In this document: positions 5,661-22,766 of the stretch, piece by piece
Position numbering within the stretch: position 1 is the stretch's first letter
Layout: each line of letters begins with the position of its first letter
Source of the DNA: an uncultured Actinomycetes bacterium
GTDB lineage: Bacteria > Actinomycetota > Actinomycetes > S36-B12 > CAIYMF01
Length of the DNA: 32,000 nt
Direction: 5' to 3'
NCBI GenBank assembly: GCA_963843975.1
Contig: CAWJMG010000003.1
Coordinates: 930,001-962,000 of the forward strand
The notes under the pieces: model-generated
What the model was told of the DNA's origin: nothing
Databases searched by the model: none
Seen by the model: the letters and a program-made list of their open reading frames with translations, nothing else
Translations under genes and position numbers: made by a program

Positions 5661-7237
5661 GCGGATCCGGCCGGGCGCATCGTGGCGGCCATCGCCACCG
5701 CGCGCAGCACCGCCGCGGCCTTGTTGCCGCACTCCTCGTGCTCGGTCGCCGGCACCGAGTCGGCCACCAGCCCTGCGCCCGCCTGCACGTACGCGGTGCC
5801 GTCCTTGATCACGGCCGTGCGGATCGCGATGGCGGTGTCGAGGTCGCCTGCGAAGTCCAGGTAGCCGACGCAGCCGGCGTAGACGCCGCGGCGCACCGGC
5901 TCGAGCTCGTCGATGATCTCCATCGCGCGCGGCTTCGGCGCGCCCGACAGCGTGCCGGCGGGGAACGTCGCCGCCAGCACGTCGTACGCCGTGCGGCCCT
6001 CGGCGAGCGTGCCGACCACGGTCGACACGATGTGCATGATGTGGCTGTAGCGCTCGATCTTCATGAACTCGACGACCTCGACCGATCCGGGCGCGCACAC
6101 GCGGCCGAGGTCGTTGCGGCCGAGGTCGACCAGCATGAGGTGCTCGGCGCGCTCCTTCTCGTCGGCGAGGAGCTCGTCGGCCAGCGCGTTGTCGGCCTCC
6201 GGCGTCGCGCCGCGCGGCCGCGAGCCCGCGATCGGGTGCAGCAGCGCGCGGCCGTCCTCGACCTTCACGAGCGCCTCCGGCGAGGAGCCCACGACGTCGA
6301 ACGCGACCTCGTCGGAGAGCGAGCCGTCCTCCGTCACGACGGGCACGCGCAGCAGGTACATGTACGGGCTCGGGTTCGTGACGCGCAGGACGCGGTAGAC
6401 GTCGAGCGAGGACGCCGGGCTCGGCGAGCTGAACCGCTGCGACAGCACGATCTGGAACGCGTCGCCTGCGCGGATGTACTCCTTGCACGCCTCGACGCCG
6501 GCCATGTACGTCTCGGGGGTCGTGCGCGAGGTGACGTCGGCGACCGCCGCCACGTCGTACGTCACCGCGGTGGCGGCCGAGTGGGTCGCGAGGTCGGACT
6601 GCATCGCGTCGAGCCGGCGTACGGCGTCGGCCCATGCGTCGTCGACGCGCTCGTCGGTGGCGTCGTAGTTGATGGCGTTGGCGATGAGCAGCACCGAGCC
6701 GTCGTGGTGGTCGAGCACCGCGAGGTCGGTGGCGAGCAGCATCGCGAGCTCGGGCACGCCGATCTCGTCGGGGTTGGAGTCGGGCAGCCGCTCCCAGCGA
6801 CGGACGACGTCGTACGACAGGTAGCCGACCATGCCGCCGGTGAGCGGCGGGAGGCCGGGCAGCCGCTCGGTGTGCAGTGCCGCGATGGTGTCGCGCAGGG
6901 CCTCGACCGGGTTGCCACCGGTCGGCAGGCCGACGGGTGCGTTGCCCAGCCACACGGCCTCGCCGTCGACCTCGGTGAGCATCGCGGCGCAGCGCACGCC
7001 CACGAACGAGTAGCGCGACCACGAGCGGCCGTGCTCGGCGGACTCGAGCAGGAACGTGCCCGCCCGCTCCCCCGTGAGCTTGCGGTAGAGGCCGGTCGGG
7101 GTCTCGCCGTCGGCGAGCAGGCGGCGCACCACCGGGATCACACGGCGGTCGCGCGCGAGGGCGCGGAAGGTCTCGAGGTCGGGCGCCGCGGAGCCCGCGA
7201 AGCCGGTCGGGTACGGCGTGGACGCGGTCGTCGTCAT
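5657..7237 (-). CDS. trpE: Anthranilate synthase component I
   Basis: A 526-aa protein containing LLESAE...SPYMY...GSSPE...[10 protein letters not shown]...[18 protein letters not shown]...[15 protein letters not shown]...RGVYAG. Confidence 0.95.
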
Positions 7238-10891: not shown

Positions 10892-10955
10892 GTCGCACAG
10901 CCTAGGCGGGCGGTCTCGACAGGCCTCCACGGGTTCTCTGGCTTACGGTCGACCC

Positions 10956-12705: not shown

Positions 12706-12713
12706 GAGCGCCT
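12702..12713. repeat. Left junction repeat (attL core) AGGTGAGCGCCT
   Basis: It matches 22556-22567 (AGGCGAGCGCCT) at 11 of 12 positions, and the 8-bp GAGCGCCT is identical. Confidence 0.75.
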
Positions 12714-12749
12714 CAATCCGTCCAGCGCAGTAGTCCCCCGCGTGTCGGC

Positions 12750-13034
12750 CTAGGCGCCGTCGGACTCCTCGGCGGCGGCCCTAGCGGTGGCACGCTCGGC
12801 GGCCCGCTCGCGAGCGCCCTCCCCGTAGTTGATTAGCGGCCGGAGAGCGGCCGACGCGGCGTCACGGAGTGTGTAGGCCGTCGCGAGGTCACCCCCTCCC
12901 ATCCCGTAGATGTAGCCGACAGTCCACCCCTCGGGGTCGGGCTCGAACGTGACGCCGAGGAGGTACTCCTCTCCGGCGGCCAGGAGGTCGGCTACGGCGG
13001 ACAGGGTCTCGGCGTCGTGCGGCTCGGCGGTCAT
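12750..13034 (-). CDS. Hypothetical acidic 94-aa protein (last gene of the leftward operon)
   Basis: Clean ATG ORF with high third-position GC. No recognisable motif. Confidence 0.55.
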   Translation of the reverse strand: MTAEPHDAETLSAVADLLAAGEEYLLGVTFEPDPEGWTVGYIYGMGGGDLATAYTLRDAASAALRPLINYGEGARERAAERATARAAAEESDGA

Positions 13035-13078
13035 GGCCGGAGTCTTGCACCCGGCTCCGACGACCGGGAAGACGCCGA

Positions 13079-13123
13079 GAGCCCCGCACCTCGACGCCGG
13101 GGGAAGCGTGAGGGGCGGGGCTC
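13079..13123 (-). terminator. Hairpin downstream of the 326-aa gene, sharing sequence with the hairpin at 21000-21035
   Basis: GAGCCCCGCaCCTC pairs with GAGGgGCGGGGCTC, with a loop of about 17 nt. On the minus strand it reads GGAGCCCCGCCCCTCAC. Confidence 0.4.
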
Positions 13124-13178
13124 CGGGGTGCTCGGCGGGGCGACGGGGGGGCGCACCCCACCGAGCGGTCTCGGGGGT

Positions 13179-14159
13179 CTAGATCACCTCGACCTCGCCG
13201 AGGTTGTCGAGGATCTCCGACCGGCTCCAGGCGTAGACGGTATCGGCGGCGGCGGCCTGGGCGGCGTCCTCGTCCACGGCCTCGACCTCGACGGAGTAGA
13301 CCGTCACCCGGTAGGACCGGGTCCGGCTCGCGGCGTCGCGGAAGTGGTCCTCCAGCCACCCCGGAAGGGCGGCGTAGGCCTTGCTCACGGCGTCCTCGTA
13401 CTCCGAGCACCACCCCTGACGCACGGCCTGCTCGCGGCACACCTCGCCGATAGCGGTCACGGCGGCCTGACCCTCCCGGTAGCGCGTCGAGGCGAGGCGG
13501 TCGAGGCGCTCGACCTCGGCGGCCTGACGCGCGCTCTCGTCCCTCGCGGCCTGGAGCGCGTCGAGGAGGACCACGAGGGCGGCCGAGGCGTGACCCTCGG
13601 CGCCGGTCAGGTCTCCGGAGCGCGCGGCGTCGACGGCCGCCGAGAGGATCCGCTCCGCCGCTCCGACGGTGTCGGCGTCGGCAGCCTCGACGGCGTCGAG
13701 AGCGGCGGCACGGGAGGACGCCGGGACGACCGGCGCGAGGGGCTCGGGCTCCTCGGCGACGGCCTCGACCGGCCACGCCTGGAGGACCTCCTCCGTCAGG
13801 TCGTGGGCGCCGTGCGCGCGGTGCTCGGCGTCCTCGTGGCCGGACAGGAGGGAGCACGAGTACCCGCGCGGGCTCGGCGCCTTGCACCGCGAGGCGTCGG
13901 GGATCTCGACGGCCTCCAGGCGCCGGGCGTAGCACGTCACGGCCTCGTCACGAGCCGTGAGCCGGACGCGGACGAGGGACTCGGAGGCCGTGGCCTCGGC
14001 GGACTCCAGGGCCTCCACGACGCCGACCTCCCCGACGGTCACGCCGGAGTAGGGCTCGATGAAGCGGACGCGCGCCTCGGGGACGAGGCGGGCGTCCCTG
14101 AGGTGCGGGAGAGCGGTCGAGGCGTCGGGCGCTGCGGGGGTGGAGAGAGTGGCGGTCAT
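13179..14159 (-). CDS. Hypothetical 326-aa protein
   Basis: The ATG at 14159 is preceded by TAAGGAGCCCTCTCACC, the motif copy at 14161-14173. The protein is Ala/Glu-rich and helical in the middle, with a Cys-containing C-terminal part (REQAVRQGWCSEYEDAV). I recognised no family. Confidence 0.6.
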   Translation of the reverse strand: MTATLSTPAAPDASTALPHLRDARLVPEARVRFIEPYSGVTVGEVGVVEALESAEATASESLVRVRLTARDEAVTCYARRLEAVEIPDASRCKAPSPRGYSCSLLSGHEDAEHRAHGAHDLTEEVLQAWPVEAVAEEPEPLAPVVPASSRAAALDAVEAADADTVGAAERILSAAVDAARSGDLTGAEGHASAALVVLLDALQAARDESARQAAEVERLDRLASTRYREGQAAVTAIGEVCREQAVRQGWCSEYEDAVSKAYAALPGWLEDHFRDAASRTRSYRVTVYSVEVEAVDEDAAQAAAADTVYAWSRSEILDNLGEVEVI

Positions 14160-14160
14160 G

Positions 14161-14173
14161 GTGAGAGGGCTCC
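14161..14173 (-). repeat. Start-associated motif copy GGAGCCCTCTCAC
   Basis: One nt upstream of the ATG at 14159. The TAA stop of the upstream gene abuts it. Confidence 0.7.
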
Positions 14174-14467
14174 TTAGCGGTTGGGGTTGGCGGTGCGGTT
14201 GCGGGCGTCGGCGTCGGACCACGAGGCCCGGCGCCGTAGGAGGACCGTCACGACGACGGCCCGGCGGCCGTCGGCGCTCTCGGCGACGACGACGGAGAGA
14301 GGGCCTCGGGTGAAGCGGCGGCGGCCCTCGTGCGGCTCGGACACGTCCGGGCGCCGGAGCGCCTCGGCGATCTCCTCGGGCTCCACGTCACGCTCGGCCA
14401 TGACGCGCCGGGCGTGGTGAGTGAGGGCGACGCCGTCGGGATAGCGGTCGGCCGCGTGCGTCGTCAC
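14174..14467 (-). CDS. DUF4258-like small protein (putative toxin-like fold)
   Basis: A 97-aa protein, ...VALTHHARRVMAERDVEPEEIAEAL..P...HEGRRRFTRGPLSVVV......VVVTVLL. This matches my recollection of the DUF4258 pattern (H-A-x-x-R-M-x-E-R ... VV ... TV). GTG at 14467 with GGAGG 7 nt upstream and a GTGA overlap. Confidence 0.5.
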   Translation of the reverse strand: MTTHAADRYPDGVALTHHARRVMAERDVEPEEIAEALRRPDVSEPHEGRRRFTRGPLSVVVAESADGRRAVVVTVLLRRRASWSDADARNRTANPNR

Positions 14468-14742
14468 GAGGTGGCCTCCGCCGTCACGGCCTCGGCGGCC
14501 TGGACGACGCGCCGGGCCTGACGCCGGGTCCTCCAGGACCCCACGAGCCGGACGGCCAGGAGGACGAGGACGACGCACGCGCGCCACGTCCACCGGAGCG
14601 CGCGCCACGTCAGGACGACGGCCCACCGGAGGAGGTGCCACGCGGCCACGGCCAGGAGGACCGGGAGCGCGAGGAGGACCCACGAGAGCGCGCCGACGAC
14701 GGGCGAGGACGAGGGAGCCGGGGCGCGGCGGTCGTCGCTCAT
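14464..14742 (-). CDS. Hypothetical small membrane protein (2 TM, Trp/Arg-rich)
   Basis: A 92-aa protein from the ATG at 14742, which overlaps the upstream stop as ATGA. Two hydrophobic helices. Confidence 0.5.
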   Translation of the reverse strand: MSDDRRAPAPSSSPVVGALSWVLLALPVLLAVAAWHLLRWAVVLTWRALRWTWRACVVLVLLAVRLVGSWRTRRQARRVVQAAEAVTAEATS

Positions 14743-14960
14743 CGGCCCTCGCCTCCGGCCACGATGCGGAGGCTCGCGGAGTGAGCGTCGGACACGGCCA
14801 CGGCGGCGGGCTCGCGGTCCAGGAGGTCGAGGGCGGCTCGGCGCCACGCGGCGGCCTCGCGGCGTGCGTCGTCCAGGCGGGCGGCGGCCAGGAGGACGCC
14901 GAGGAGGAGGCCGACGGTCGCGGCCACGAGGGCCAGGGCGGCGGCGGAGAGAGCGAACAT
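14739..14960 (-). CDS. Hypothetical small membrane protein (1 TM)
   Basis: A 73-aa protein, MFALSAAALALVAATVGLLLGVLLAAA.... The ATG at 14960 directly follows GGAGCCCTCTCA. Confidence 0.5.
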   Translation of the reverse strand: MFALSAAALALVAATVGLLLGVLLAAARLDDARREAAAWRRAALDLLDREPAAVAVSDAHSASLRIVAGGEGR

Positions 14961-14972
14961 TGAGAGGGCTCC
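14961..14972 (-). repeat. Start-associated motif copy GGAGCCCTCTCA
   Basis: Immediately 5' of the ATG at 14960. Confidence 0.7.
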
Positions 14973-14979
14973 TAGCGAT

Positions 14980-14991
14980 GTGAGAGGGCTC
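14980..14991 (-). repeat. Tandem second motif copy GAGCCCTCTCAC, followed by ATC rather than ATG
   Basis: The minus strand reads GAGCCCTCTCAC-ATC-GCTA-GGAGCCCTCTCA-ATG. Confidence 0.6.
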
Positions 14992-15060
14992 GGAAGTCCC
15001 GGCCGGGGAAGCGCGACGGGGGAGGCACGCTCCCCCGGCCGGGGGTCTAGCGGGGGCGGG

Positions 15061-15660
15061 TCAGGAGGCCTTGACGCACGACGCGGCCGGGGTCGAGAGG
15101 ACCGGGCCGGAGGTGTCGGTGGAGACCTGGACGGCATACCCGGTGAGGGCGAGGGTCGCGCCGTCGGCGAGAGCCGAGCCGGGGCGGCCGATCGTCACCT
15201 GCACCTGCTTCGGCGTCCCCACCTGGAGCGGGACGCCGCACGCCGAGCCGGGGGTGGAGGTCGAGGAGGTGGACTCGACCGACAGGCTCCAGCCGGTCTG
15301 CGGGCTCACGGGCGCGGCGACTCCGGCCACGGTTCCGTCGGCGCCGGTCGCCACGAGGGAGGCGGTGTAGGTGCAGGACTCGCCCGGGTAGATCCCGGAT
15401 CCGCCGGTCGAGGAGAGCACGCCGGAGTCCACGGTCAGGCTCGGGCACCCGGCCGGGCCGGAGGCGGGGCCGACGGTCGTCCACGAGGCGGAGAAGGATC
15501 CGCCCTTGACGGTGCCGGAGAAGTTGGCTCGGGCGAGGTACGCCGCGAGGGCGACTCCGGCGGCGGCCACGACGGCCACGACGGCCACGACGGGGACGCC
15601 GAGGACGCGGCGGCCGAGGATGCCGCGACGGTGGGTCGCGGAGGGGTAGGCGTGGGACAT
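15061..15660 (-). CDS. Predicted secreted or membrane-anchored Ser/Thr/Gly-rich beta-type protein with 4 Cys
   Basis: A 199-aa protein with a basic N-terminus, the hydrophobic anchor VLGVPVVAVVAVVAAAGVALAAYLA, then a low-complexity, beta-rich sequence. The ATG at 15660 directly follows GGAGCCGTCTCAC. Confidence 0.6.
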   Translation of the reverse strand: MSHAYPSATHRRGILGRRVLGVPVVAVVAVVAAAGVALAAYLARANFSGTVKGGSFSASWTTVGPASGPAGCPSLTVDSGVLSSTGGSGIYPGESCTYTASLVATGADGTVAGVAAPVSPQTGWSLSVESTSSTSTPGSACGVPLQVGTPKQVQVTIGRPGSALADGATLALTGYAVQVSTDTSGPVLSTPAASCVKAS

Positions 15661-15673
15661 GTGAGACGGCTCC
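15661..15673 (-). repeat. Start-associated motif variant GGAGCCGTCTCAC
   Basis: Immediately 5' of the ATG at 15660. Confidence 0.65.
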
Positions 15674-15901
15674 TAAACGGTCGAGGGCCTCGCGGCTCTC
15701 CGGCGCCACGGTGGCGCCGTGCTCGGAAAGGTAGCACCCGGCCTCTGACAGGCGCGCCAGGGCGTCCACAGGCGCGGCGTGACCGTTACGGCGGCCGGGT
15801 GCTCTCGACGGCCTCACGGGGCGCTCACGAGCCGCGAAAGGCCTACGTCCGGCGGCGTGTGACAGGGACGCCGACGGCTCCGGGGTGGGACCCTCGGCGG
15901 C
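15674..15901. promoter_or_regulatory. Divergent intergenic control region between the leftward operon and the XRE regulator
   Basis: About 240 bp between divergent starts. It contains a 19-bp palindrome CGGCGCCAC-G-GTGGCGCCG (15701-15719) and the direct 9-mers ACAGGCGCG at 15748 and 15768, 20 bp apart. Confidence 0.45.
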
Positions 15902-16186
15902 ATGGTGACCGCAGCAGAAACCGAGGGCCTAGACGCGCTCGTGTCGGACAACGTCCGAGCCGCACGGGCTCGGCTCCGGATCCGTCAGGCGGACCTAGCG
16001 GAGCGCCTCGGGTGGAGCCGGGCGAGCGTTGCGAGCCTGGAGGACCGGCGCCGACGGGTGACCCTCGCGGACGCGGTCGGCTTGTGCTCGGCGCTCGGGC
16101 TCACCTTGACCGAACTCCTCGACGGCCGGGAGGGCGCCGAGGCCCGGCGGGCTCTCGGCCTGGAGGCGTCCGGACGCAACGTCTAG
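15902..16186 (+). CDS. XRE/Cro-CI-type helix-turn-helix transcriptional regulator
   Basis: A 94-aa protein. LRIRQADLAERLGWSRASVASLEDRRRRVTLADAVGLCSALGLTLTELL is a typical HTH_3 signature. It is the only plus-strand gene in the element. Confidence 0.75.
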   Translation: MVTAAETEGLDALVSDNVRAARARLRIRQADLAERLGWSRASVASLEDRRRRVTLADAVGLCSALGLTLTELLDGREGAEARRALGLEASGRNV

Positions 16187-16190
16187 ACGG

Positions 16191-16243
16191 GTCAGGCCCC
16201 GTGCCGGGAGCCCTCTCACAGGATCGGCGGCACGGGGCCTGAC
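16191..16243. terminator. Perfect 16-bp stem hairpin between convergent genes, with the start-associated motif in its 21-nt loop
   Basis: GTCAGGCCCCGTGCCG (16191-16206) pairs with CGGCACGGGGCCTGAC (16228-16243). The loop is GGAGCCCTCTCACAGGATCGG. Confidence 0.65.
16207..16219 (+). repeat. Motif copy GGAGCCCTCTCAC on the plus strand, not followed by a start codon
   Basis: It sits in the loop of the 16191-16243 hairpin. Confidence 0.7.
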
Positions 16244-16253
16244 GGGTCGAACT

Positions 16254-16487
16254 CTAGTCGCGGTGCGGCTCGTGCTCTGCCAGGGCGTCGAGGGCCTCGG
16301 CCAGGGCTCGGAGGTCCTCGCGGATCTCCGGCTCGGGCTCGACGGCCACGGGCTCCTCGGCCACGGGCGCCGAGCCCCACCCGGAGTGGTCGGCCAGGGT
16401 TGCCGTGAACGCGGAGACCTCCTCCGGCGCACCCGGTTCGGGGGCGAACCGGCGCACCTCGCGCCTCACGAAGTGGTTCCCGCTCAC
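16254..16487 (-). CDS. Hypothetical acidic 77-aa protein
   Basis: GTG at 16487 with GGAGG upstream and a GTGA overlap with the preceding gene. Confidence 0.45.
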   Translation of the reverse strand: MSGNHFVRREVRRFAPEPGAPEEVSAFTATLADHSGWGSAPVAEEPVAVEPEPEIREDLRALAEALDALAEHEPHRD

Positions 16488-16840
16488 GCGGCCACCTCCA
16501 CGGGCTCGACGGAGACGACGCCGACAGGGAGCACCTCGGCCCGGTGTGACGCCTCGCGGATCCACGCGGCGGCCACGGAGGCCCGGAGGTCGGAGGCGGC
16601 CTCGGCGGCGCCGAGCGCGAGCGACGGCGGGAGCGCGCGGTTACTCGGGATCACGAGCAACGGAACGCACCGCGAGGCGATGAGACGACGCGCGGCCTCG
16701 TGGTCTCCGTCCACCTCGCCGGACTCCAGGAGGACGACGAGGGCTCTCCCGTACAGGCGCCGGGTCGAGGTCCGGTAGGCGGTGGCGCCGGGCGTCACTT
16801 GGTGCAGGGCCGTCGCGGCGCCGTACCGGGTGGCGCTCAC
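16484..16840 (-). CDS. Hypothetical 118-aa protein
   Basis: The GTG at 16840 overlaps the upstream stop as GTGA. Sequence ...LYGRALVVLLESGEVDGDHEAARRLIASRCVPLLVIP...; no family assigned. Confidence 0.45.
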   Translation of the reverse strand: MSATRYGAATALHQVTPGATAYRTSTRRLYGRALVVLLESGEVDGDHEAARRLIASRCVPLLVIPSNRALPPSLALGAAEAASDLRASVAAAWIREASHRAEVLPVGVVSVEPVEVAA

Positions 16841-17646
16841 GAGGCGGCGCCGGTCCACTCGACGCGCGGGGCCGTCGCGGCCTTGTGAGCGGCGGCGGCC
16901 TTGTCGGCGGCGCGGTAGTGCTCGACCGCCGAGCCCGCGAGGGTGTCGAGGTCGGCCGGGAGAGGGAGCCGGTCGGCGAGGCGCTCGGTGCGGACCATCT
17001 GGGCGCTGAAGTCGTGCGGTCGCCGGGTGAGGCGGTCGCCGAGCATCTGCGGCACGAGGGCCTCGGCGTACCCGGCGGCACGGAGCGCGACGCCGTCGAG
17101 GGAGGACAGGCTCCGGAAGGCGTCGCGCGCGGCCTCCACGGAGGCCTCGGCCTCGGCGATGCGGCCTCGGGCCTCCGTCGAGGTCCTGACGGCCTCGACG
17201 TGCAGGGCCTCGCGGGTCGCCGGGTCGAGGCAGGCGACTCCGGCGGCGCGGTCCACGTCGGCGGCGGTGTGCCGGGCCTCGGCCACGGCGGCGTGGATCC
17301 GCGCCCACAGGCCGAGGAGCCGGGCGCCGAGCGCGTCGGCGTCGGGGGCCTTCACCTTCACCGGGCCGGAGGTCGTCGCCTCGGCGGCGGCCCTCCACGC
17401 GCCGAGCGCGGCGGCGTGGTCGGTCAGGGCGTCGAGTGCCTCGGAGCGCGTGTCCTCGACGCGGTCCGAGACCGCCGCGTGAGCCGCGAGCGCGTCGGCG
17501 ACCGGCGCCGAGACGGCGGCGAGGTGGGCGAGGAGCCCGGGGTCAGTCTTCGGCTCGGCGGTGGCGGTGAGGATGCCCGGTCCGCCGCTCCACGTCTGCG
17601 GGACGAGGAGGGAGTGGCCGGAAGCGGAGGTGTAGAGGTTCGTCAT
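16837..17646 (-). CDS. Hypothetical 269-aa Ala-rich helical protein
   Basis: The ATG at 17646 is preceded by the degenerate motif GGAGGGCGCTCACG (17647-17660). No family recognised. Confidence 0.55.
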   Translation of the reverse strand: MTNLYTSASGHSLLVPQTWSGGPGILTATAEPKTDPGLLAHLAAVSAPVADALAAHAAVSDRVEDTRSEALDALTDHAAALGAWRAAAEATTSGPVKVKAPDADALGARLLGLWARIHAAVAEARHTAADVDRAAGVACLDPATREALHVEAVRTSTEARGRIAEAEASVEAARDAFRSLSSLDGVALRAAGYAEALVPQMLGDRLTRRPHDFSAQMVRTERLADRLPLPADLDTLAGSAVEHYRAADKAAAAHKAATAPRVEWTGAAS

Positions 17647-18067
17647 CGTGAGCGCCCTCCTAGGGCGCGAGGCCTCGGCCGCCGGGGCGGAGTCGAGGGT
17701 CCGGCCGTCGCGCCAATCGCGACGTTCACCGGGGGTGCGGACGGGGGTCCGCGAGTGTCGGGGGATCGGCGGATTGCCTACTCTCCCAACGGTTTACGGG
17801 GTTCGTGCCAATCGGCCGGCCAGGGAGGCCAGGGCCGAAAGTCCTTGTGCCGCAAGGACTCTGAGCATTCGCCGAAAGTCCGTGTGCGCGTTGCGGTCTC
17901 GCGGTTCGGGGCTCGCGAGGCGGTCGATGGGCTCGGGTCGTCTCGCATTGTGGGATGACTGCGTTAACTAAAGGCCGTCTGACCTGCGGAAACGTCTGTA
18001 AGGCGATTTTGCGGGCGGGGTGGGGTGAGTGGACCGGGACGGGGGTCTCGGGCCTCTACGGGCCGTT

Positions 18068-18277
18068 CTAGGCCGTTCTAGAGGGTGCCTCCTGACGCCG
18101 TCGGAAGGCTCTCGCCTCCTTCGGCGTCACGGTGCCGCCGACGGTCGTCGGCTCCTCGACGCCGACCCGTGAGGCCTCGGCCAGGAGCCGGAGCGCCGCG
18201 AGGGCCTCGACCCGGACGGCCTCGGGGGTCTCGACGCCGAGCGGAGGCCACGGGTCGCGCGTCACCTCGGCCGCCAT
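18068..18277 (-). CDS. Hypothetical 69-aa protein
   Basis: ATG at 18277, overlapping the upstream ORF end by 16 nt. The stop lies inside a tandem GGCCGTTCTA x2 repeat. Confidence 0.4.
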   Translation of the reverse strand: MAAEVTRDPWPPLGVETPEAVRVEALAALRLLAEASRVGVEEPTTVGGTVTPKEARAFRRRQEAPSRTA

Positions 18278-18732
18278 GACAGGTGGTCGGGCTCGACGCA
18301 ACGGGGCTCGGCGCACACGACGCGGATCGGGCCGACGCGCTCGGACGACAGGGCCTCGATCACGAGGCGCCGCACCTCGGCCGCGCGGCTCGGCGACGGC
18401 CACGCCGAGCACCCCGTGGCGGGGTCGTGCTCGGCGAGGCCGACGACGGCGGAGAGGACCTCGGCCGGGTCGCCGGTCGCGAGGGCTCGGCCGAGGGCGT
18501 AGCCGGTCACCTTCGGTCGGCTCGGCTCGGAGGCCTGGACCCGCCGGGTCCGCTCGCGCTGACAGGCGAGGCAGCACCGCGCCCGGCCGCCGGGCTTGCT
18601 CCGGTTGCGGACGAGGAGCGAGAGCCGCGACTCACCGCACGAGGCGCACGCCCGCGAGGCCTCGACGCGCTCGGGCTCGGGGACCTGACGGAGGAGGACG
18701 ACGGCGAGCCGGTCGAGGGTCGTCGTGGTCAT
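18262..18732 (-). CDS. Zinc-ribbon protein with an HNH-associated-like C-terminus
   Basis: A 156-aa protein with CASCG...CCLAC (four Cys) and a C-terminal VVCAEPRCVEPDHLSW. The latter resembles the C-x-x-x-C-V-N-P-x-H-L motif of phage HNH/AP2-type DNA-binding proteins. ATGA overlap at 18729-18732. Confidence 0.45.
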   Translation of the reverse strand: MTTTTLDRLAVVLLRQVPEPERVEASRACASCGESRLSLLVRNRSKPGGRARCCLACQRERTRRVQASEPSRPKVTGYALGRALATGDPAEVLSAVVGLAEHDPATGCSAWPSPSRAAEVRRLVIEALSSERVGPIRVVCAEPRCVEPDHLSWRPR

Positions 18733-19148
18733 CGGCGGCACCCGCCGTGGAGAGGCTGGAGGACGCCGCGCCGAGCCGCGACGGGGCGACCGCACGAGGT
18801 GCAGGGCTCGACCTCGCCGAGGCGAGCGCGGGCGGCGGCCTCCTCGGTCATCCGAGCCATGAGGGCGGCGTAGCGGAGCGGCGCGGCCTCCTCGGCCCGG
18901 AGGTACTCCAGGTCGGGGGTTGCACGCCTCGCACGCTCGGCGGCCACGAGGACGGCCACGCCGGACTCCTCGGCCACGTCGAGGCCGTCGGTCTGCGCGC
19001 GGTCGAGGGCATCGACGGTCAGCCACCTACGGCCCCGGGTCCGCTCGGCGTCGGCACGGAGCGCCGGGACGCACGGCCAACCGGCCAGGGACTCCAGGCC
19101 CTTGCTGTCGTTCACGGTGAGGCCGGGGTCACGGGTGGAGGCGGTCAC
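18729..19148 (-). CDS. Hypothetical 139-aa protein with a C-terminal CxxC...C motif
   Basis: The GTG at 19148 overlaps the upstream stop as GTGA. The C-terminus reads EVEPCTSCGRPVAARRGVLQPLHGGC. Confidence 0.45.
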   Translation of the reverse strand: MTASTRDPGLTVNDSKGLESLAGWPCVPALRADAERTRGRRWLTVDALDRAQTDGLDVAEESGVAVLVAAERARRATPDLEYLRAEEAAPLRYAALMARMTEEAAARARLGEVEPCTSCGRPVAARRGVLQPLHGGCRR

Positions 19149-19990
19149 GGCGCGGGCTCCTCGGCGGGCTGGGGACGGGCGGCGCGCTCGCGGCGGAGGG
19201 CGTCGATACGAGAGAGGTCGGCGGCACGGGTGGCGGCCTCCTCGACGGTCAGGGGCTCGGGCCTCGGCACGGTGAACACGACGCCGACGGCGCCGCGACG
19301 GGAGAGCCGGGCGGCCTCCTCCAGGAGCCGGAAGAAGTCGCCTTGCGAGAGGCGCGCACCCTTCCGGACGCCGGAGCGGAACGCGGCGGTGAGGTACTGC
19401 CTCCAGGCCTCGGCGCGGGTGTAGGTGCCGTGGGGGAGGTGGGCGATGAACGTGCGCGCGTGGTCCTCGGCCAGGGTGCGAGCCGCGAGCGTCGAGGCAC
19501 GAGGGCCGAGGGCCGGGGTCGAGCGCCACGCGGTCAGGAGCCCGGCGGTCGAGACCGGGTCACCCTGGGAACGGAGGAGGAGCGACAGGGCCTCGTCGGC
19601 GGCGGTCGCGGACCACGAGCCCCACCCCCGCGACCGCGCCTCGGCGACGGCCCGCGTGCGGGCGAGCGCCGATGCGTACTCGACCGGCTCGGGGTCCGGC
19701 TCGGGGAGCGCGAGGACGAGCGACCGCGCGAGGGTCTCGGCGGCCGGAGCGCCGTGGTCGTCGCGGGGCTGGAGAGTCAGGACGCCGGAGGCATCGGGGG
19801 CGGCCAGGAACCGGCGTAGGTCGGCGTCCTCGGCCACGCGCCACTCGGCGGCGTGCAGGAGGACGGCCAGGACGCGGCCGACGGCCAGGGGCGACAGGAC
19901 CTCGGACGGAGGAGCCATAGGGCCGTCGAGGTGGGCGACGCCGAGCGCGAGGCGGCGGCCGTCGAGGAGGGCGGGGAGGTTGGCGAACAT
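19145..19990 (-). CDS. Hypothetical 281-aa protein (first gene after the AT-rich island; a replication or DNA-binding role is only a guess)
   Basis: ATG at 19990 (MFANLPALLDG...). The longer track ORF to 20188 has an implausible N-terminus. No family recognised. Confidence 0.5.
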   Translation of the reverse strand: MFANLPALLDGRRLALGVAHLDGPMAPPSEVLSPLAVGRVLAVLLHAAEWRVAEDADLRRFLAAPDASGVLTLQPRDDHGAPAAETLARSLVLALPEPDPEPVEYASALARTRAVAEARSRGWGSWSATAADEALSLLLRSQGDPVSTAGLLTAWRSTPALGPRASTLAARTLAEDHARTFIAHLPHGTYTRAEAWRQYLTAAFRSGVRKGARLSQGDFFRLLEEAARLSRRGAVGVVFTVPRPEPLTVEEAATRAADLSRIDALRRERAARPQPAEEPAP

Positions 19991-20600
19991 GGGGGCGGGT
20001 CTCGCTTTCGGTTGGCGGGTGGAGGTCGAGCGGATCGAGCGGCGGCGGGTCGAGGGGTGGGCGACGGCTCCGAGTAGGACCCGCCTCGGAGCCGTCGCGC
20101 CGGTACGGCCTGAGACCCGCCAAGGCAACGGCCGTACGTCTGTCCCCGCACCGCTCGACGCGGTCGAGCCGGAGGCGCTCGCGCCCACCCCTGCCTCCTG
20201 AAGTCAGGAGCGGGCGTTACCTAGGCGAGCGTCGAGCGGTGCGGGGGTCTAGGGGCTCGGCGCCGGGGCGGCCGAGCGGGTGTCTCACTCCGCAGATAGG
20301 CGAACTCGTGCGCGATCCGCAGCGCGCGGCGCCGGAGCGCCGAGCGTCGGCCGAGGAGGACAGGGCAGGAGGGCGCCAGGAGCCCCCGACCTGCTCACGG
20401 TTCGCCGGGTGAATCTCGGTGGCCGGGCGCCGGGAGCGGCCTGGAGGTGGTCGAGGGCTTGTGCGCTTGTGAACCCTCAGACTCGTACGCACCCTGCCGG
20501 GCTATGCCGCTTCGGAAGGGGACGGGAGCGCGGAGGGGTCCCTCCCCACCCCTCCCGGCGGAAACGCGCGGGGGTTTCGGCGGTTTAGGGCTCGCGAGGC

Positions 20601-20771
20601 GTGATAGTGACGGATTAGCGAGATAGTGACAGATAGGACGAAGTGCCGTTAGTACCTTCTATTTCCTATTCCTGTTAGAGGCTCTCTAAAAACAAACCTA
20701 GAGAGGGAATAGTAAATAGCGGTAGATAGCCTCACTTCGTCCTATCTGTCACTTAGGGCTGAATCTGTCAC
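20601..20771. promoter_or_regulatory. AT-rich island with a 21-bp perfect inverted repeat and four GTGAC(A/G)GAT 9-mers (candidate origin or operator cluster)
   Basis: AGTGACAGATAGGACGAAGTG (20625-20645) is the reverse complement of CACTTCGTCCTATCTGTCACT (20733-20753). GATAGTGAC occurs at 20603 and 20622, and ATCTGTCAC at 20744 and 20763. The 87-bp spacer is strongly AT-rich in a GC-rich context. Confidence 0.55.
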
Positions 20772-20999
20772 CACCCCTCGACCGGCCTCCGCCCGGCGGC
20801 ACCGCCGACGGCCTCCAGGCGCCACCGTCGGCGCTCCCGCGCCACCCTCGGCGGCCTCCTGACGCCGTATCAGGGCTCCAGGAGCCCCGCTCCCGGCCGA
20901 ACGGCCGCACCCCCGTATGTCCGGACCCCCGGCCATTCCGTGCCGCCTACGGGCCTCCTGGGGCCTCGGGGCCTGGAGCCGTGCTCACGCCGGACGCCG

Positions 21000-21035
21000 A
21001 GGAGCCCCGCTCCTCGTGAGAGGGGCGGGGCTCCT
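21000..21035 (-). terminator. Stem-loop 15 nt downstream of the integrase stop
   Basis: AGGAGCCCCGC(t)CCTC pairs with GAGG(g)GCGGGGCTCCT around a 4-nt loop. The minus-strand RNA would be AGGAGCCCCGCCCCUC-UCAC-GAGGAGCGGGGCUCCU. There is no U-tract. Confidence 0.5.
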
Positions 21036-21049
21036 GGTGCTCGGGCCGG

Positions 21050-22504
21050 TCAGGCGGCGGCCTCGTGCTCGACGGCCGCCGGGTCCAGGCGCCATGCGTC
21101 GAGGATCCGGCCGAGGTCGAAGGTCCGGCGGCCTCGGACGCCGGGGCCGAGCGCCAGGGCGCCGACGGTCCGGGCGAGCGCGTCGCGGCGGTCCTCCAGC
21201 GTCCCGGCCTCCCACACGTCCCCGTACGTCCGGCCGGTCTCCCGGAGGACGGTCATCGCGAGCGCCGGGAGAGCCGCGAGGCGCTCGGCCTCGTCCTCGG
21301 CGGCGTCGAGAGCCGCGAGGGCCTCGGCGCGCTCGGAGCGCGGCGCCACGGCCAGGGCGGCGCGTGCCGCGTCCACGCGGTCCTCGGCCTGGGCGAGGCG
21401 CTCGGAGGCCTCGTCGGAGAGCCGCACGGAGACGGTCTCGGGCAGGCTCCCCCACCCGGCGAGCCACGCGGCCGAGACGGCGGCCTCGACGGCCTCGGCG
21501 GAGGCAGCGACGGGACGCGCGCAACGCTGACCGGCGCCGTCCGACGGGCAGCGGTAGAAGGACGGCGCGTCGTGCTTGCTGGAGACCGCGAGGCGCGAGC
21601 CGCACGAGTGGCAGACGAGGACGCCGGAGAGCAGACGGGCCGGGCGGCGGTTGCTCGTGCTCGTGCGGCGCTCGGGCGCCGAGAGGATCCGGCGCACCTC
21701 GCGGAGCGTCGAGGCGTCGAGGACCTCGGCCGCGCCGTCTCCCTTGACGAGAGTGTTTCGGAGGCTCGTCCGGCTCCAGGCGGCGGCACGACGCGGGGCG
21801 TGGCCGTGGTCGTTGAGGTAGCGCACGACGCGCACGACGGGCTCTCCAGCGACGACGCGGGCGGCGGCGAGGCGGAGCGTCGCGGCCTCGGCCTCGTCCA
21901 CCTCCAGGACCTTTCCGGCGCCGTCGGGGTTGGGGACGGCGCGGAGGCCGTAGGCAATGACTCCGCCGTTCCAACGGCCCTCAGCGCGGAGGCGCTCGTG
22001 GGAGGCGATGTTGCGGGCTTTCGTCGCCTCGCGCTCGGCCTCGGCCATGCCTCCGAGGACGCCGACCATGAGCGGCCACGCCGAGACGTCGCCGGAGTCG
22101 AGATTGTCCGAGTAGGACAGGAACCGGACCGGCTCGGAGACCGCCGTGCCGTCGGCGTCAATGCCCTTCACCGTGTCGAGGAACCGGGCGAGTCCGGCGG
22201 TGCCGCCACGGCTCACGCGGTCCAGGCGCCACGCGAGGAGATGCGTCGCGCGACCCTCGCGGGCGTCGGCGAGCCACGCGAGGAGGCCGGGCCGGTTGCG
22301 GAGGGCGCCGGACTCTCCGTCGTCGGTCCAGATGGAGACCACCTCCAGGCCGTGACGCTCGGCGAGGGCGCGGAGGTCGGCCTCTTGTGCCTGGAGGCCG
22401 GTCGAGTCGGCCCCGGAGGCCTTGCTCTTGCGGAGGTACAGGGAGGCGGTGGCGGTCATGGTCGAGGAGGGGGCCAGCGTGCGTGAGGTTGCTCGGGTGG
22501 TCAT
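21050..22504 (-). CDS. Large serine recombinase (integrase)
   Basis: A 484-aa protein. The N-terminal resolvase-type catalytic domain reads ASLYLRKSK...DDGESGALRNRPGL...LLAWRLDRVSRG. The recombinase domain contains GRWNGGVIAYG. The zinc ribbon reads VCHSCGSRL...YRCP...QRC, followed by an Ala/Glu-rich coiled-coil tail. The ATG at 22504 directly follows GGAGCCCTCTCAC. Confidence 0.9.
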   Translation of the reverse strand: MTTRATSRTLAPSSTMTATASLYLRKSKASGADSTGLQAQEADLRALAERHGLEVVSIWTDDGESGALRNRPGLLAWLADAREGRATHLLAWRLDRVSRGGTAGLARFLDTVKGIDADGTAVSEPVRFLSYSDNLDSGDVSAWPLMVGVLGGMAEAEREATKARNIASHERLRAEGRWNGGVIAYGLRAVPNPDGAGKVLEVDEAEAATLRLAAARVVAGEPVVRVVRYLNDHGHAPRRAAAWSRTSLRNTLVKGDGAAEVLDASTLREVRRILSAPERRTSTSNRRPARLLSGVLVCHSCGSRLAVSSKHDAPSFYRCPSDGAGQRCARPVAASAEAVEAAVSAAWLAGWGSLPETVSVRLSDEASERLAQAEDRVDAARAALAVAPRSERAEALAALDAAEDEAERLAALPALAMTVLRETGRTYGDVWEAGTLEDRRDALARTVGALALGPGVRGRRTFDLGRILDAWRLDPAAVEHEAAA

Positions 22505-22517
22505 GTGAGAGGGCTCC
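22505..22517 (-). repeat. Start-associated motif copy GGAGCCCTCTCAC
   Basis: Immediately 5' of the integrase ATG. Confidence 0.7.
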
Positions 22518-22535
22518 GTTTCGGCGAGCGGTGAA

Positions 22536-22766
22536 CTACTGCTCTCCGAAGATAGAGGCGAGCGCCTGCGTCCACGGGAACGCCGCGAGCAGGTTGCCGA
22601 GCACGGGTACGCCGTCCGGCCAGGCCACCACGGCCATGATCACGTGGCCGACCACGACGACGAGCAGCGCCGCCGCGCGAGCGCCGTCCACGACGCGGTC
22701 ACGGTCGGGCGGCGTCTCGGCCGCAGCCCGAGCCGTCGGCACCGCCGCGAACACCCGGATGCTCAC
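22536..22766 (-). pseudogene. Acyltransferase-3 N-terminal fragment (69 native codons plus 7 element-derived codons and a stop)
   Basis: GTG at 22766, reading ...DGARAAALLVVVVGHVIMAVVAWPDGVPVLGNLLAAFPWTQAL, then ASIFGEQ-stop. The native part ends at 22560. Confidence 0.75.
22556..22567. repeat. Right junction repeat (attR core) AGGCGAGCGCCT
   Basis: Matches 12702-12713 at 11 of 12 positions. Confidence 0.75.

Follow-up and report, generated by a model that had tools for sequence, protein, structure and literature searches.

Start-associated sequences (SAS) have been catalogued since 2011 in two clusters of actinophages. In the Cluster K mycobacteriophages, the SAS is a 13-bp sequence, GGGATAGGAGCCC, that is present in 11-19 copies, each located 3-7 bp before a translation start (Pope et al. 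2011, PMC3203893). Of 93 such sites, 80 are found at an ATG; they lie in one orientation, apart from a single reverse copy in K1 phages, and they are conserved beyond the bases that pair with 16S rRNA and are nearly absent from host genomes (PMC3203893). Operationally, a sequence with no more than two mismatches to GGGATAGGAGCCC is counted as a SAS (PMC3203893; reused in PMC12699233). Papers published in 2024 and 2025 read the upstream extended SAS (ESAS) as a SigA-like promoter with an inverted repeat. A second SAS, GGGAAAGGACCCC, has been described in the Microbacterium phages of Cluster EF (Jacobs-Sera et al. 2020, PMC7302621). Here, we analyze a 13-nt motif, GGAGCCCTCTCAC, that recurs at translation starts within an integrated element of approximately 9.85 kb (hereafter, the island) in the chromosome of an uncultured Actinomycetes bacterium. 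The window referred to below is the whole stretch of 32,000 nucleotides that was analyzed (contig CAWJMG010000003.1, positions 930,001 to 962,000), and all island coordinates are window coordinates. The motif is clearly non-random, and it represents a single instance of a known but unexplained kind of motif.

The window contains three exact and three one-mismatch copies of the motif, and all six are within the island. One exact copy (22505-22517, minus strand) is followed directly by the ATG at 22504 of the integrase gene. A second (14161-14173, minus strand) lies between the TAA stop codon of a DUF4258 gene and C-ATG (14159), the start of a 326-aa ORFan, o14159. The third is found on the plus strand (16207-16219), where it is sense for a helix-turn-helix (HTH) gene; minus-strand RNA from this site would read GUGAGAGGGCUCC, the perfect complement of the motif. 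The one-mismatch copy GGAGCCGTCTCAC (15661-15673, minus strand) abuts the ATG at 15660 of a 199-aa protein, o15660, whose N-terminus, read by eye from the translation alone, resembles a signal sequence or transmembrane segment. In the one-mismatch copy GGAGCCCTCTCA (14960-14972, minus strand), the 13th position is itself the A of the ATG at 14960, which opens a 73-aa open reading frame (ORF). Next to it lies a tandem copy with one mismatch, CGAGCCCTCTCAC (14980-14992, minus strand), which is not at a start and is followed by ATC (14992-14977). The tandem copy keeps the core, CCCTCTCAC, and its two differences remove a G of the Shine-Dalgarno (SD) sequence and the G of the start codon. Finally, a degenerate copy, GGAGGGCGCTCAC (17648-17660, minus strand), precedes G-ATG at 17646 in the same register (17660-17644). 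All of the sequences quoted in the first-pass annotation from which this work set out are present at the places it gave.

When one mismatch is allowed, six matches are found where 0.20 would be expected, and none of 100 shuffled sequences reaches six. At up to two mismatches there is no match outside 14161-22517, and at three mismatches there is no enrichment (19 found versus 24.5 expected). Raw copy number is nevertheless weaker evidence than the shuffles suggest, because more than 25 other 13-mers, which are codon-repeat words, also recur at least three times in this 73% G+C window. Copy number by itself does not settle the matter; the decisive statistic is the register of the copies relative to start codons. 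Among the five sense-strand copies, four have their 3' end within 0-2 nt of one of 14 starts, with P of approximately 1.6e-9 when calculated over the whole island and approximately 7e-7 when only its 2,138 non-coding bases are open to copies. The association with starts noticed at first pass is thus borne out: in four cases the motif stops 0-1 nt short of an ATG or has the A of the ATG as its last base, even where 55-240 nt of non-coding DNA is available. The start-linked copies stand at the first gene after each untranslated gap, and the start codon is ATG in 5/5 of these cases versus 6/10 of the other island starts, numbers that are too few for significance. Five copies are on the minus strand and one, that at 16207, is on the plus strand; all six are sense to a gene transcribed through or up to them, the plus-strand copy being 21 nt after the HTH gene.

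When the 100 nt before the five motif-bearing starts are aligned, similarity extends from 2-5 nt ahead of GGAG (YTA or TAA) as far as the ATG. Because the similarity is confined to the motif and these 2-5 nt, the copies are not pieces of larger duplications. In the mRNA, GGAG is located at -13/-14 as (U)A(A)GGAG and is followed by a fixed, C/U-rich spacer of 9-10 nt and then by AUG. The motif itself consists of GGAG, then CCCT, CCGT or GGCG, then CTCA(C), and the mismatches avoid GGAG and CTCA. The spacer had been described as invariant, which holds for its CTCA(C) end and not for the four bases that follow GGAG. The sequence CCCTCTCAC has no complementarity to the standard actinobacterial 16S 3' end (a generic sequence, not the host's own 16S), in agreement with the initial observation that conservation extends past the SD core. 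The start-linked copies lie in stretches that are predicted to be open: the ribosome-binding site (RBS) regions fold no better than shuffled sequences, with z of +0.1 to +1.2 for four of them and -1.1 for o15660. In the four close copies, the SD:anti-SD duplex is worth -6.8 to -8.3 kcal/mol, and in the degenerate copy it is worth -10.9 kcal/mol. This last copy is an exception in its folding, since its changed bases pair the SD into a 7-bp hairpin, GCGCCCU-AGG-AGGGCGC (17668-17652).

Such likeness among start regions could arise if one good RBS with its spacer had been duplicated or recombined at gene boundaries too recently for the copies to have diverged; the motif would then be no more than an ordinary strong RBS. 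The tandem at 14980/14960 does resemble a duplication scar, and other short non-coding segments of the island, namely two paralogous hairpins described below, have been duplicated. In addition, o19148 uses GGAGCCC without the remainder of the motif, and no relatives that could reveal selection on the motif were found in the collections examined. We nevertheless consider a plain copied RBS unlikely, since the likeness breaks off at the edges of the motif and the flanking sequences are not homologous, since an exact copy is found in a hairpin loop on the other strand, away from any start, and since the mismatches spare GGAG and CTCA. In the tandem copy, which is not at a start, it is precisely the SD and the start codon that the two changes affect.

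We also considered whether the motif reflects the way in which host genes are started. A generic promoter and terminator consensus scan, which is unsuited to this G+C, found nothing, and an analysis of TANNNT hexamers was used instead. These hexamers are rare, with 19 in 32 kb counting both strands, and 7/10 of those in the flanks sit 6-7 nt before an ATG or GTG that opens an ORF with high G+C at third codon positions. Examples of the form TA(G/C)NNT are found at 2062-2057, 10904-10899, 10944-10949, 23602-23597, 24458-24453 and 28679-28674. Genes of Longivirga aurantiaca show the same pattern of TANNNT before the start. The sampled host genes look largely leaderless or have a weak SD, and a clear SD is rare in the flanks. 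The motif is absent, at up to two mismatches, from the 22 kb of flanking chromosome, as had been judged by eye, and it is absent from 12.7 kb of Longivirga aurantiaca chromosome; the statement that it occurs only inside the element therefore holds for the window and for these 12.7 kb, which define its scope. The first-pass annotation had named the host's preferred RBS context as the explanation that would undo its proposal. This explanation is ruled out, since flank and Longivirga genes have TANNNT 6-7 nt upstream or a weak SD and never the motif. A -10 promoter element for leaderless mRNAs is likewise ruled out, since TAGGAG does not end in T and stands at a spacing of 8-11 nt. A role as part of attP or of an integrase site is ruled out as well, since the attP inverted repeat stops 12 nt before the copy at 22517 and has a different sequence.

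Nine TANNNT hexamers lie within the island, and no copy of the motif overlaps any of them. Two are placed such that a start-linked copy would fall within a 5' untranslated region (5' UTR). The first, TATCTT (22549..22554, minus strand), is in the P' arm approximately 45 nt before the integrase ATG, and would leave the motif in a short 5' UTR; the second, TACCTT (15728..15733, minus strand), is approximately 68 nt before the ATG of o15660. These two copies thus lie in 5' UTRs that are predicted from the sequence. A third hexamer, TAGAGT, precedes a hairpin and is considered with it below. Of the remaining six, four are in an inverted-repeat region (20625-20753), one is on the plus strand at 17779, and one is inside a coding sequence.

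The first-pass annotation had named the Cluster K SAS as the closest precedent and had given its consensus as containing GGAGCC, which GGGATAGGAGCCC does. Like the Cluster K SAS, the island motif is 13 nt long and asymmetric, contains an SD core, adjoins starts and extends past the bases that pair with 16S rRNA. Its copies nearly all point one way, with a lone reverse copy that is off any start. The five starts that it adjoins are all ATG, a number too small for a preference to be significant, and the stretches of chromosome in which no copy was found are the 22-kb flanks and the 12.7 kb of Longivirga aurantiaca. We re-scanned the genome of the Cluster K phage Anaya and found 16 forward SAS and one reverse SAS, with spacers that vary from 3 to 8 nt. 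The two motifs share (TA)GGAGCCC, with GGAGCCC placed 6-7 nt before the start in the island and 3-8 nt before it in Anaya. Unlike the Cluster K SAS, the island copies have at least three mismatches to GGGATAGGAGCCC, so that comparison with the published SAS yields a shared (TA)GGAGCCC and a shared anatomy and yet places the island copies outside the operational two-mismatch definition. A search of the window for GGGATAGGAGCCC at up to two mismatches gives one match (17526, plus strand), which is inside a coding sequence and on the wrong strand, and the counts equal chance.

Further differences concern the layout of the motif and its setting. The extra conserved block lies 3' of the SD in the island (TCTCAC, filling the spacer), whereas it lies 5' of the SD (GGGATA) in Cluster K; spacers vary in the Cluster K SAS and are fixed in the island motif; and there is no ESAS-like upstream element in the island, where the upstream alignment shows nothing conserved beyond the motif. 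There are five start copies in the 9.85-kb island, compared to 11-19 SAS in a 60-kb Cluster K phage, and the host belongs to a different actinobacterial order from the hosts of Cluster K. The island differs from the SAS phages in its size, in having five start-linked copies, in lying outside the phages proper and in including an integrase gene among the targets. The Cluster EF SAS has the general anatomy of the Cluster K SAS (13 nt with an SD, beside starts that favour ATG, in one orientation but for a lone reverse copy). It resembles the island motif in having an SD core followed by a run of C, and it indicates that SAS-type motifs of differing sequence arise in unrelated actinobacterial mobile elements. 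It differs in its sequence, in having its conserved part 5' of the SD, in its linked upstream ESAS and in belonging to lytic phages.

From these sequence comparisons, we suggest that the motif is the island's shared translation-initiation cassette, SAS-like and read on the RNA by one common partner, a reading to which we assign a probability of roughly 0.4. In this mechanism, one partner, which could be a protein or an RNA and could come from the island or from a helper, would read the same 13 nt on each mRNA and would thereby keep the bases past GGAG alike at unrelated genes. Translation of the integrase gene and of the o15660-o14159 genes would be switched together. The copies that are not at starts (the 14980 tandem copy and those in the hairpins at 16207 and 21016) keep CCCTCTCAC without an SD or start codon and might serve as extra binding or titration sites. 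A common reader would be needed because nine non-SD bases are identical at unrelated genes, and we rank a reader that acts at the RNA level first because of the fixed register, the position in the 5' UTR and the SAS precedent. The first-pass annotation had suggested element-specific translational control or a binding site for a protein or RNA, and this is what we, too, infer.

Control of this kind is familiar from phage T4, in which the RegA repressor and the RegB endoribonuclease each act on the initiation regions of many of the phage's own mRNAs. RegB recognizes and cuts GGAG in the SD sequences of early genes, and the targets of both proteins are only loosely conserved. No homologue of RegA or RegB was detected in the island. 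The conserved extra bases lie in the spacer between SD and AUG, where a factor that bound them would run straight into the 30S subunit. The island offers an explicit candidate partner in the exact reverse copy in a hairpin loop, and in a largely leaderless host SD-dependent control would be easy to separate from host translation. What reads a SAS becomes testable here with a handful of reporter constructs.

Several observations weigh against a shared cassette that is read on the RNA. The role of the SAS was still called undefined in the 2024 and 2025 papers. The hexamer GGAGCC is denser island-wide (3.65 per kb versus 0.81 per kb in the flanks, a 4.5-fold difference), so the GGAGCC part of the motif owes something to island composition. 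No RNA-binding protein is recognized in the island by Pfam, PHROGs, PADLOC or NCBIfam. A direction-dependent repressor would also explain the orientation of the copies. A word search among 5.8 billion proteins returned no homologues of o14159 or o19990, and the islands beside the closest integrases have no such motif or conserved spacer, their genes having ordinary, variable RBSs. Because no relatives of the island were found, selection on the motif is not demonstrable by comparison.

These closest integrases are 56%, 50% and 44% identical to that of the island, and the integrase is the only thing that the islands beside them have in common with it. A full HMMER search with o14159 gave only weak, partial hits to its C-terminal part, and the one retrieved sits on a 1.3-kb contig. 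A megablast search against phages gave only an 81-base match to the integrase gene. Apart from the integrase, no relatives of island genes were found in the collections examined. The motif followed by ATG was searched for in 185,579 species genomes, and this gave 112 single hits, none of them in genomes encoding island proteins; the hits are spread over many phyla among the 80 matches listed. Three viral scans gave single-copy matches only. These scans, which reach beyond the window as the first-pass annotation had proposed, thus turned up no multi-copy relative and, by returning single copies alone, did not show selection. A widespread motif family is ruled out, since the genome and viral hits are single copies. 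The sole double match (L060, Tsuneonella suprasediminis, 2250-2520) proved to be an unrelated short repeat (GGAGCCCTCTCACCATGGATTGCTTCACTCC) beside palindromic repeats of the form gtcattgcgaggagccgcag.

The main rival to an RNA-level reader is a stoperator-like reading at the DNA level. The L5 stoperators have been named as the known 13-bp contrast case for the SAS (Pope et al. 2011, PMC3203893). [quoted passage not shown] The L5 operator and stoperators reportedly share one consensus, a finding attributed to work by Brown and colleagues in 1997. By analogy, the XRE-family repressor of the island, or some other DNA-binding protein, would bind the asymmetric 13-bp sites within transcription units and block elongation while the element is integrated, and the overlap with the SD would be incidental. 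Such a role would fit the presence of the XRE HTH gene, the location of copies downstream of -10-like hexamers, and the non-start copies, which retain the CCCTCTCAC core with neither SD nor ATG. Moreover, the core is one base off the CTGTCAC/GTGACAG repeats that are clustered with -10-like hexamers (20632, 20746 and 20765), and one CTGTCAC-type repeat lies in a palindrome before the HTH gene (15859-15867).

We regard the DNA-level alternative as somewhat unlikely, for the following reasons. A roadblock to elongation does not need a fixed register of 0-1 nt to the ATG, and the motif contains an SD. At the position of the motif's C, the repeats linked to promoters carry G in every case (CTGTCAC versus CTCTCAC). 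Lastly, L5 stoperators share the promoter-operator consensus and have no fixed start register, whereas the island copies keep a fixed register and none overlaps a -10-like hexamer. If the DNA-level alternative were true, the island would be a case of stoperator-like silencing outside the Cluster A mycobacteriophages.

The exact copy on the plus strand lies in a G+C-rich hairpin (16191..16243) that can form on both strands and is located between the converging o16487 and HTH genes. The hairpin has 16 bp and a 21-nt loop, with a folding free energy of approximately -45.7 kcal/mol whichever strand is taken (z = -5.8 and -4.9); its apical loop displays CUCAC on the plus-strand RNA and GUGAG on the minus-strand RNA. 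The -10-like hexamer TAGAGT (16251..16256, minus strand), which overlaps the TAG stop codon of o16487, precedes the hairpin, whose first base is 16243, by 7 nt. This arrangement raises the possibility of an antisense mechanism, in which a minus-strand RNA that either ends at the hairpin (16243-16191) or begins shortly ahead of it would display GUGAGAGGGCUCC, the anti-SD CUCC plus 9 island-specific nt, and would silence the four motif-bearing RBSs jointly.

An antisense RNA would explain the conserved spacer, since all of its targets would have to match one RNA. The loop of the 16-bp hairpin contains an exact, 13/13 reverse complement of the motif, and its apical GUGAG is free at no energetic cost. 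Cofolding showed no gain from pairing of loop and target but cannot model such pairing, and opening-energy and duplex estimates were used instead; the opening cost and the duplex together give a net -11.6 to -15.8 kcal/mol for the four good copies. The TAGAGT hexamer is suggestive as well, given that TANNNT is rare here and marks transcription starts. There is also a parallel in the K1-like phages, whose lone reverse SAS is likewise in a loop of a conserved intergenic RNA that is preceded by a promoter and has covarying stems. Against these points, a 13-bp helix inside a closed 21-nt loop would be strained, the hairpin is plausible as a bidirectional terminator in any case, and the copy at 16207 is also sense for the HTH transcript. 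Furthermore, Cluster K needs no such partner: among the phages sampled, the anti-SAS loop is found only in the K1-like ones, while the loops of Marshawn, Amgine and Unicorn are different and that of Yuna is deleted, yet in all four phages 17-20 SAS copies with the same consensus are present. A general role for an anti-SAS RNA as the partner of the SAS is therefore not supported. We judge silencing by an antisense RNA in the island to be unlikely. Equally doubtful is its most elaborate form, a private anti-SD switch in which the hairpin RNA (16243-16191), perhaps transcribed from TAGAGT, would silence the integrase gene and three others, with the spacer as an address label that spares host mRNAs and with the K1-type Cluster K phages as a second instance.

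The intergenic region of Cluster K that contains the reverse SAS has several features of its own. In Anaya, the reverse SAS is in a hairpin loop, and the intergenic region around it, 385 nt long, is conserved among 182 Cluster K phages. The promoter of the region, TTGRCG-17-TAGACT, is invariant, and 6/16 hairpin pairs show compensatory changes (in Anaya, L178:39740-39960, corresponding to approximately 59740-59960 of the record). In K1-like phages, one hairpin loop reads CCUCCUAUCCC, which is complementary to the SAS and imitates the anti-SD of 16S rRNA. Most Cluster K records annotate nothing in this region, and we found no description of it in the literature as an RNA gene.

Two further hairpins of the island carry motif sequence. 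A terminator-like hairpin after the integrase gene (21001..21034, minus strand) has the form GGAGCCCCGC-C-CCUC[UCAC]GAGG-A-GCGGGGCUCC and holds the full CCCTCTCAC (21016-21024); pairing of CCUC with GAGG leaves only UCAC in the loop. Its paralogue, located after o14159 (13079..13124, minus strand), has only CCCTCAC (stem CCCTC plus AC), a weak match to the motif. The first-pass annotation had listed expanded variants of the motif at 21016-21034 and 13108-13124; these are present, and they are just the 5' arms of the paralogous hairpins, that at 13108 being the weak match. A search of Rfam gave one sub-threshold match and no known RNA family.

The gene directly upstream of the exact copy at 14161-14173 encodes a 97-aa DUF4258 protein (14174-14467, minus strand; Pfam E = 4e-8). 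DUF4258 has been placed among the BECR-fold ribonuclease toxin families, with its target unknown (PMC11980606; bioRxiv 10.64898/2026.08.28.747851). It is conceivable that the motif is a ribonuclease site and that this protein cuts at or next to GGAG in its conserved context, in the manner of RegB, which the same family placement lists as a RelE-like BECR member (bioRxiv 10.64898/2026.08.28.747851; PMC11980606). We consider this highly improbable: the link is one of position only, islands harbour many toxin genes with no link of this kind, no antitoxin for the DUF4258 gene was recognized in the island, and no solved relative was found by sequence. A shared initiation cassette remains the reading that we prefer for this copy as for the others. 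Upstream of the DUF4258 gene, the ORFs 14960-14739 and 14742-14464 encode small hydrophobic proteins.

The island is inserted in an Acyl_transf_3 gene at 12713..22559, and nearly all of its genes are on the minus strand. The window is 72-77% G+C, and a tRNA gene search of it found none. Proteins encoded by the chromosomal part of the window cluster at 90% identity with proteins from Longivirga aurantiaca and from 'Nanopelagicales' metagenome-assembled genomes, and the same neighbourhood in Longivirga aurantiaca has an uninterrupted Acyl_transf_3 gene and hence represents the empty site (attachment site at 7072-7083 of that locus). Blast comparison with this empty site places the break between 22556 and 12713, and inspection of the junctions reveals the common core, a 7-bp GGCGCTC as read along the minus strand, which lies at 22566-22560 on the attL side and at 12712-12706 on the attR side. 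The bounds of 12713-22559 follow from the Blast break and the common core. In the reconstructed attP, the arms are imperfect inverted repeats of each other, and a TGGACG box is found 18 nt upstream of TATCTT, compared to only approximately 14 nt upstream in attL (22540-22580, 12713-12740); speculatively, the integrase promoter may be better spaced in the excised circle. The word CCCTCTC occurs nine times in the island and not at all in the flanks, and this distinct word usage fits a foreign origin.

Among the cargo of the island, Pfam, PHROGs, PADLOC and NCBIfam recognize solely the integrase, the HTH protein and the DUF4258 protein, and approximately 11 island ORFs have no family match in these collections. 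There are no recognizable phage genes. The integrase is a large serine integrase/recombinase (21050-22504, minus strand; Pfam Resolvase and Zn_ribbon_recom, PHROG integrase), and its start at 22504 was also called independently by a gene caller. The XRE-family HTH protein (94 aa; 15902-16186) is encoded by the sole plus-strand gene and matches Pfam HTH_31/HTH_3 and repressor families of PHROGs, which makes it a candidate repressor of the element. On the minus strand, 25-50 nt upstream of the start of the HTH gene, the segment 15854-15881 contains GGAGCCGTC followed by a palindrome, GGCGT-CCCTGTCAC-ACGCC. This motif-like core between short inverted repeats is a possible XRE operator.

Several other repeats were observed in the island. 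A perfect 11-nt inverted repeat, GCGACGGCTCC-N16-GGAGCCGTCGC, is located at 20061-20098 (minus strand), upstream of o19990. The true start of o19990 is uncertain, the ATG at 19990 having no SD and a GTG at 20188 having AGGAGG, and a model of its product built by AlphaFold with no alignment had a pLDDT of 42 and could not be used. The island becomes richer in A+T only at 20600-20780. This stretch contains a 48-nt inverted repeat (20625-20672 / 20706-20753, 79% complementary), the GTGACAG/CTGTCAC repeat three times and, distributed over both strands, four of the nine TANNNT hexamers. It is likely the main divergent promoter/operator region or an origin. A related island (L116, 11640-12110) has many GTGACGG/CCGTCAC repeats at the equivalent place after the integrase gene. 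The best inverted pair of the island consists of 29-nt segments at 15679-15707 and 18184-18212 that are 90% complementary, which may be due to chance in codon-repeat DNA; the former lies just upstream of the o15660 copy of the motif, and the latter is inside a small ORF (18277-18068).

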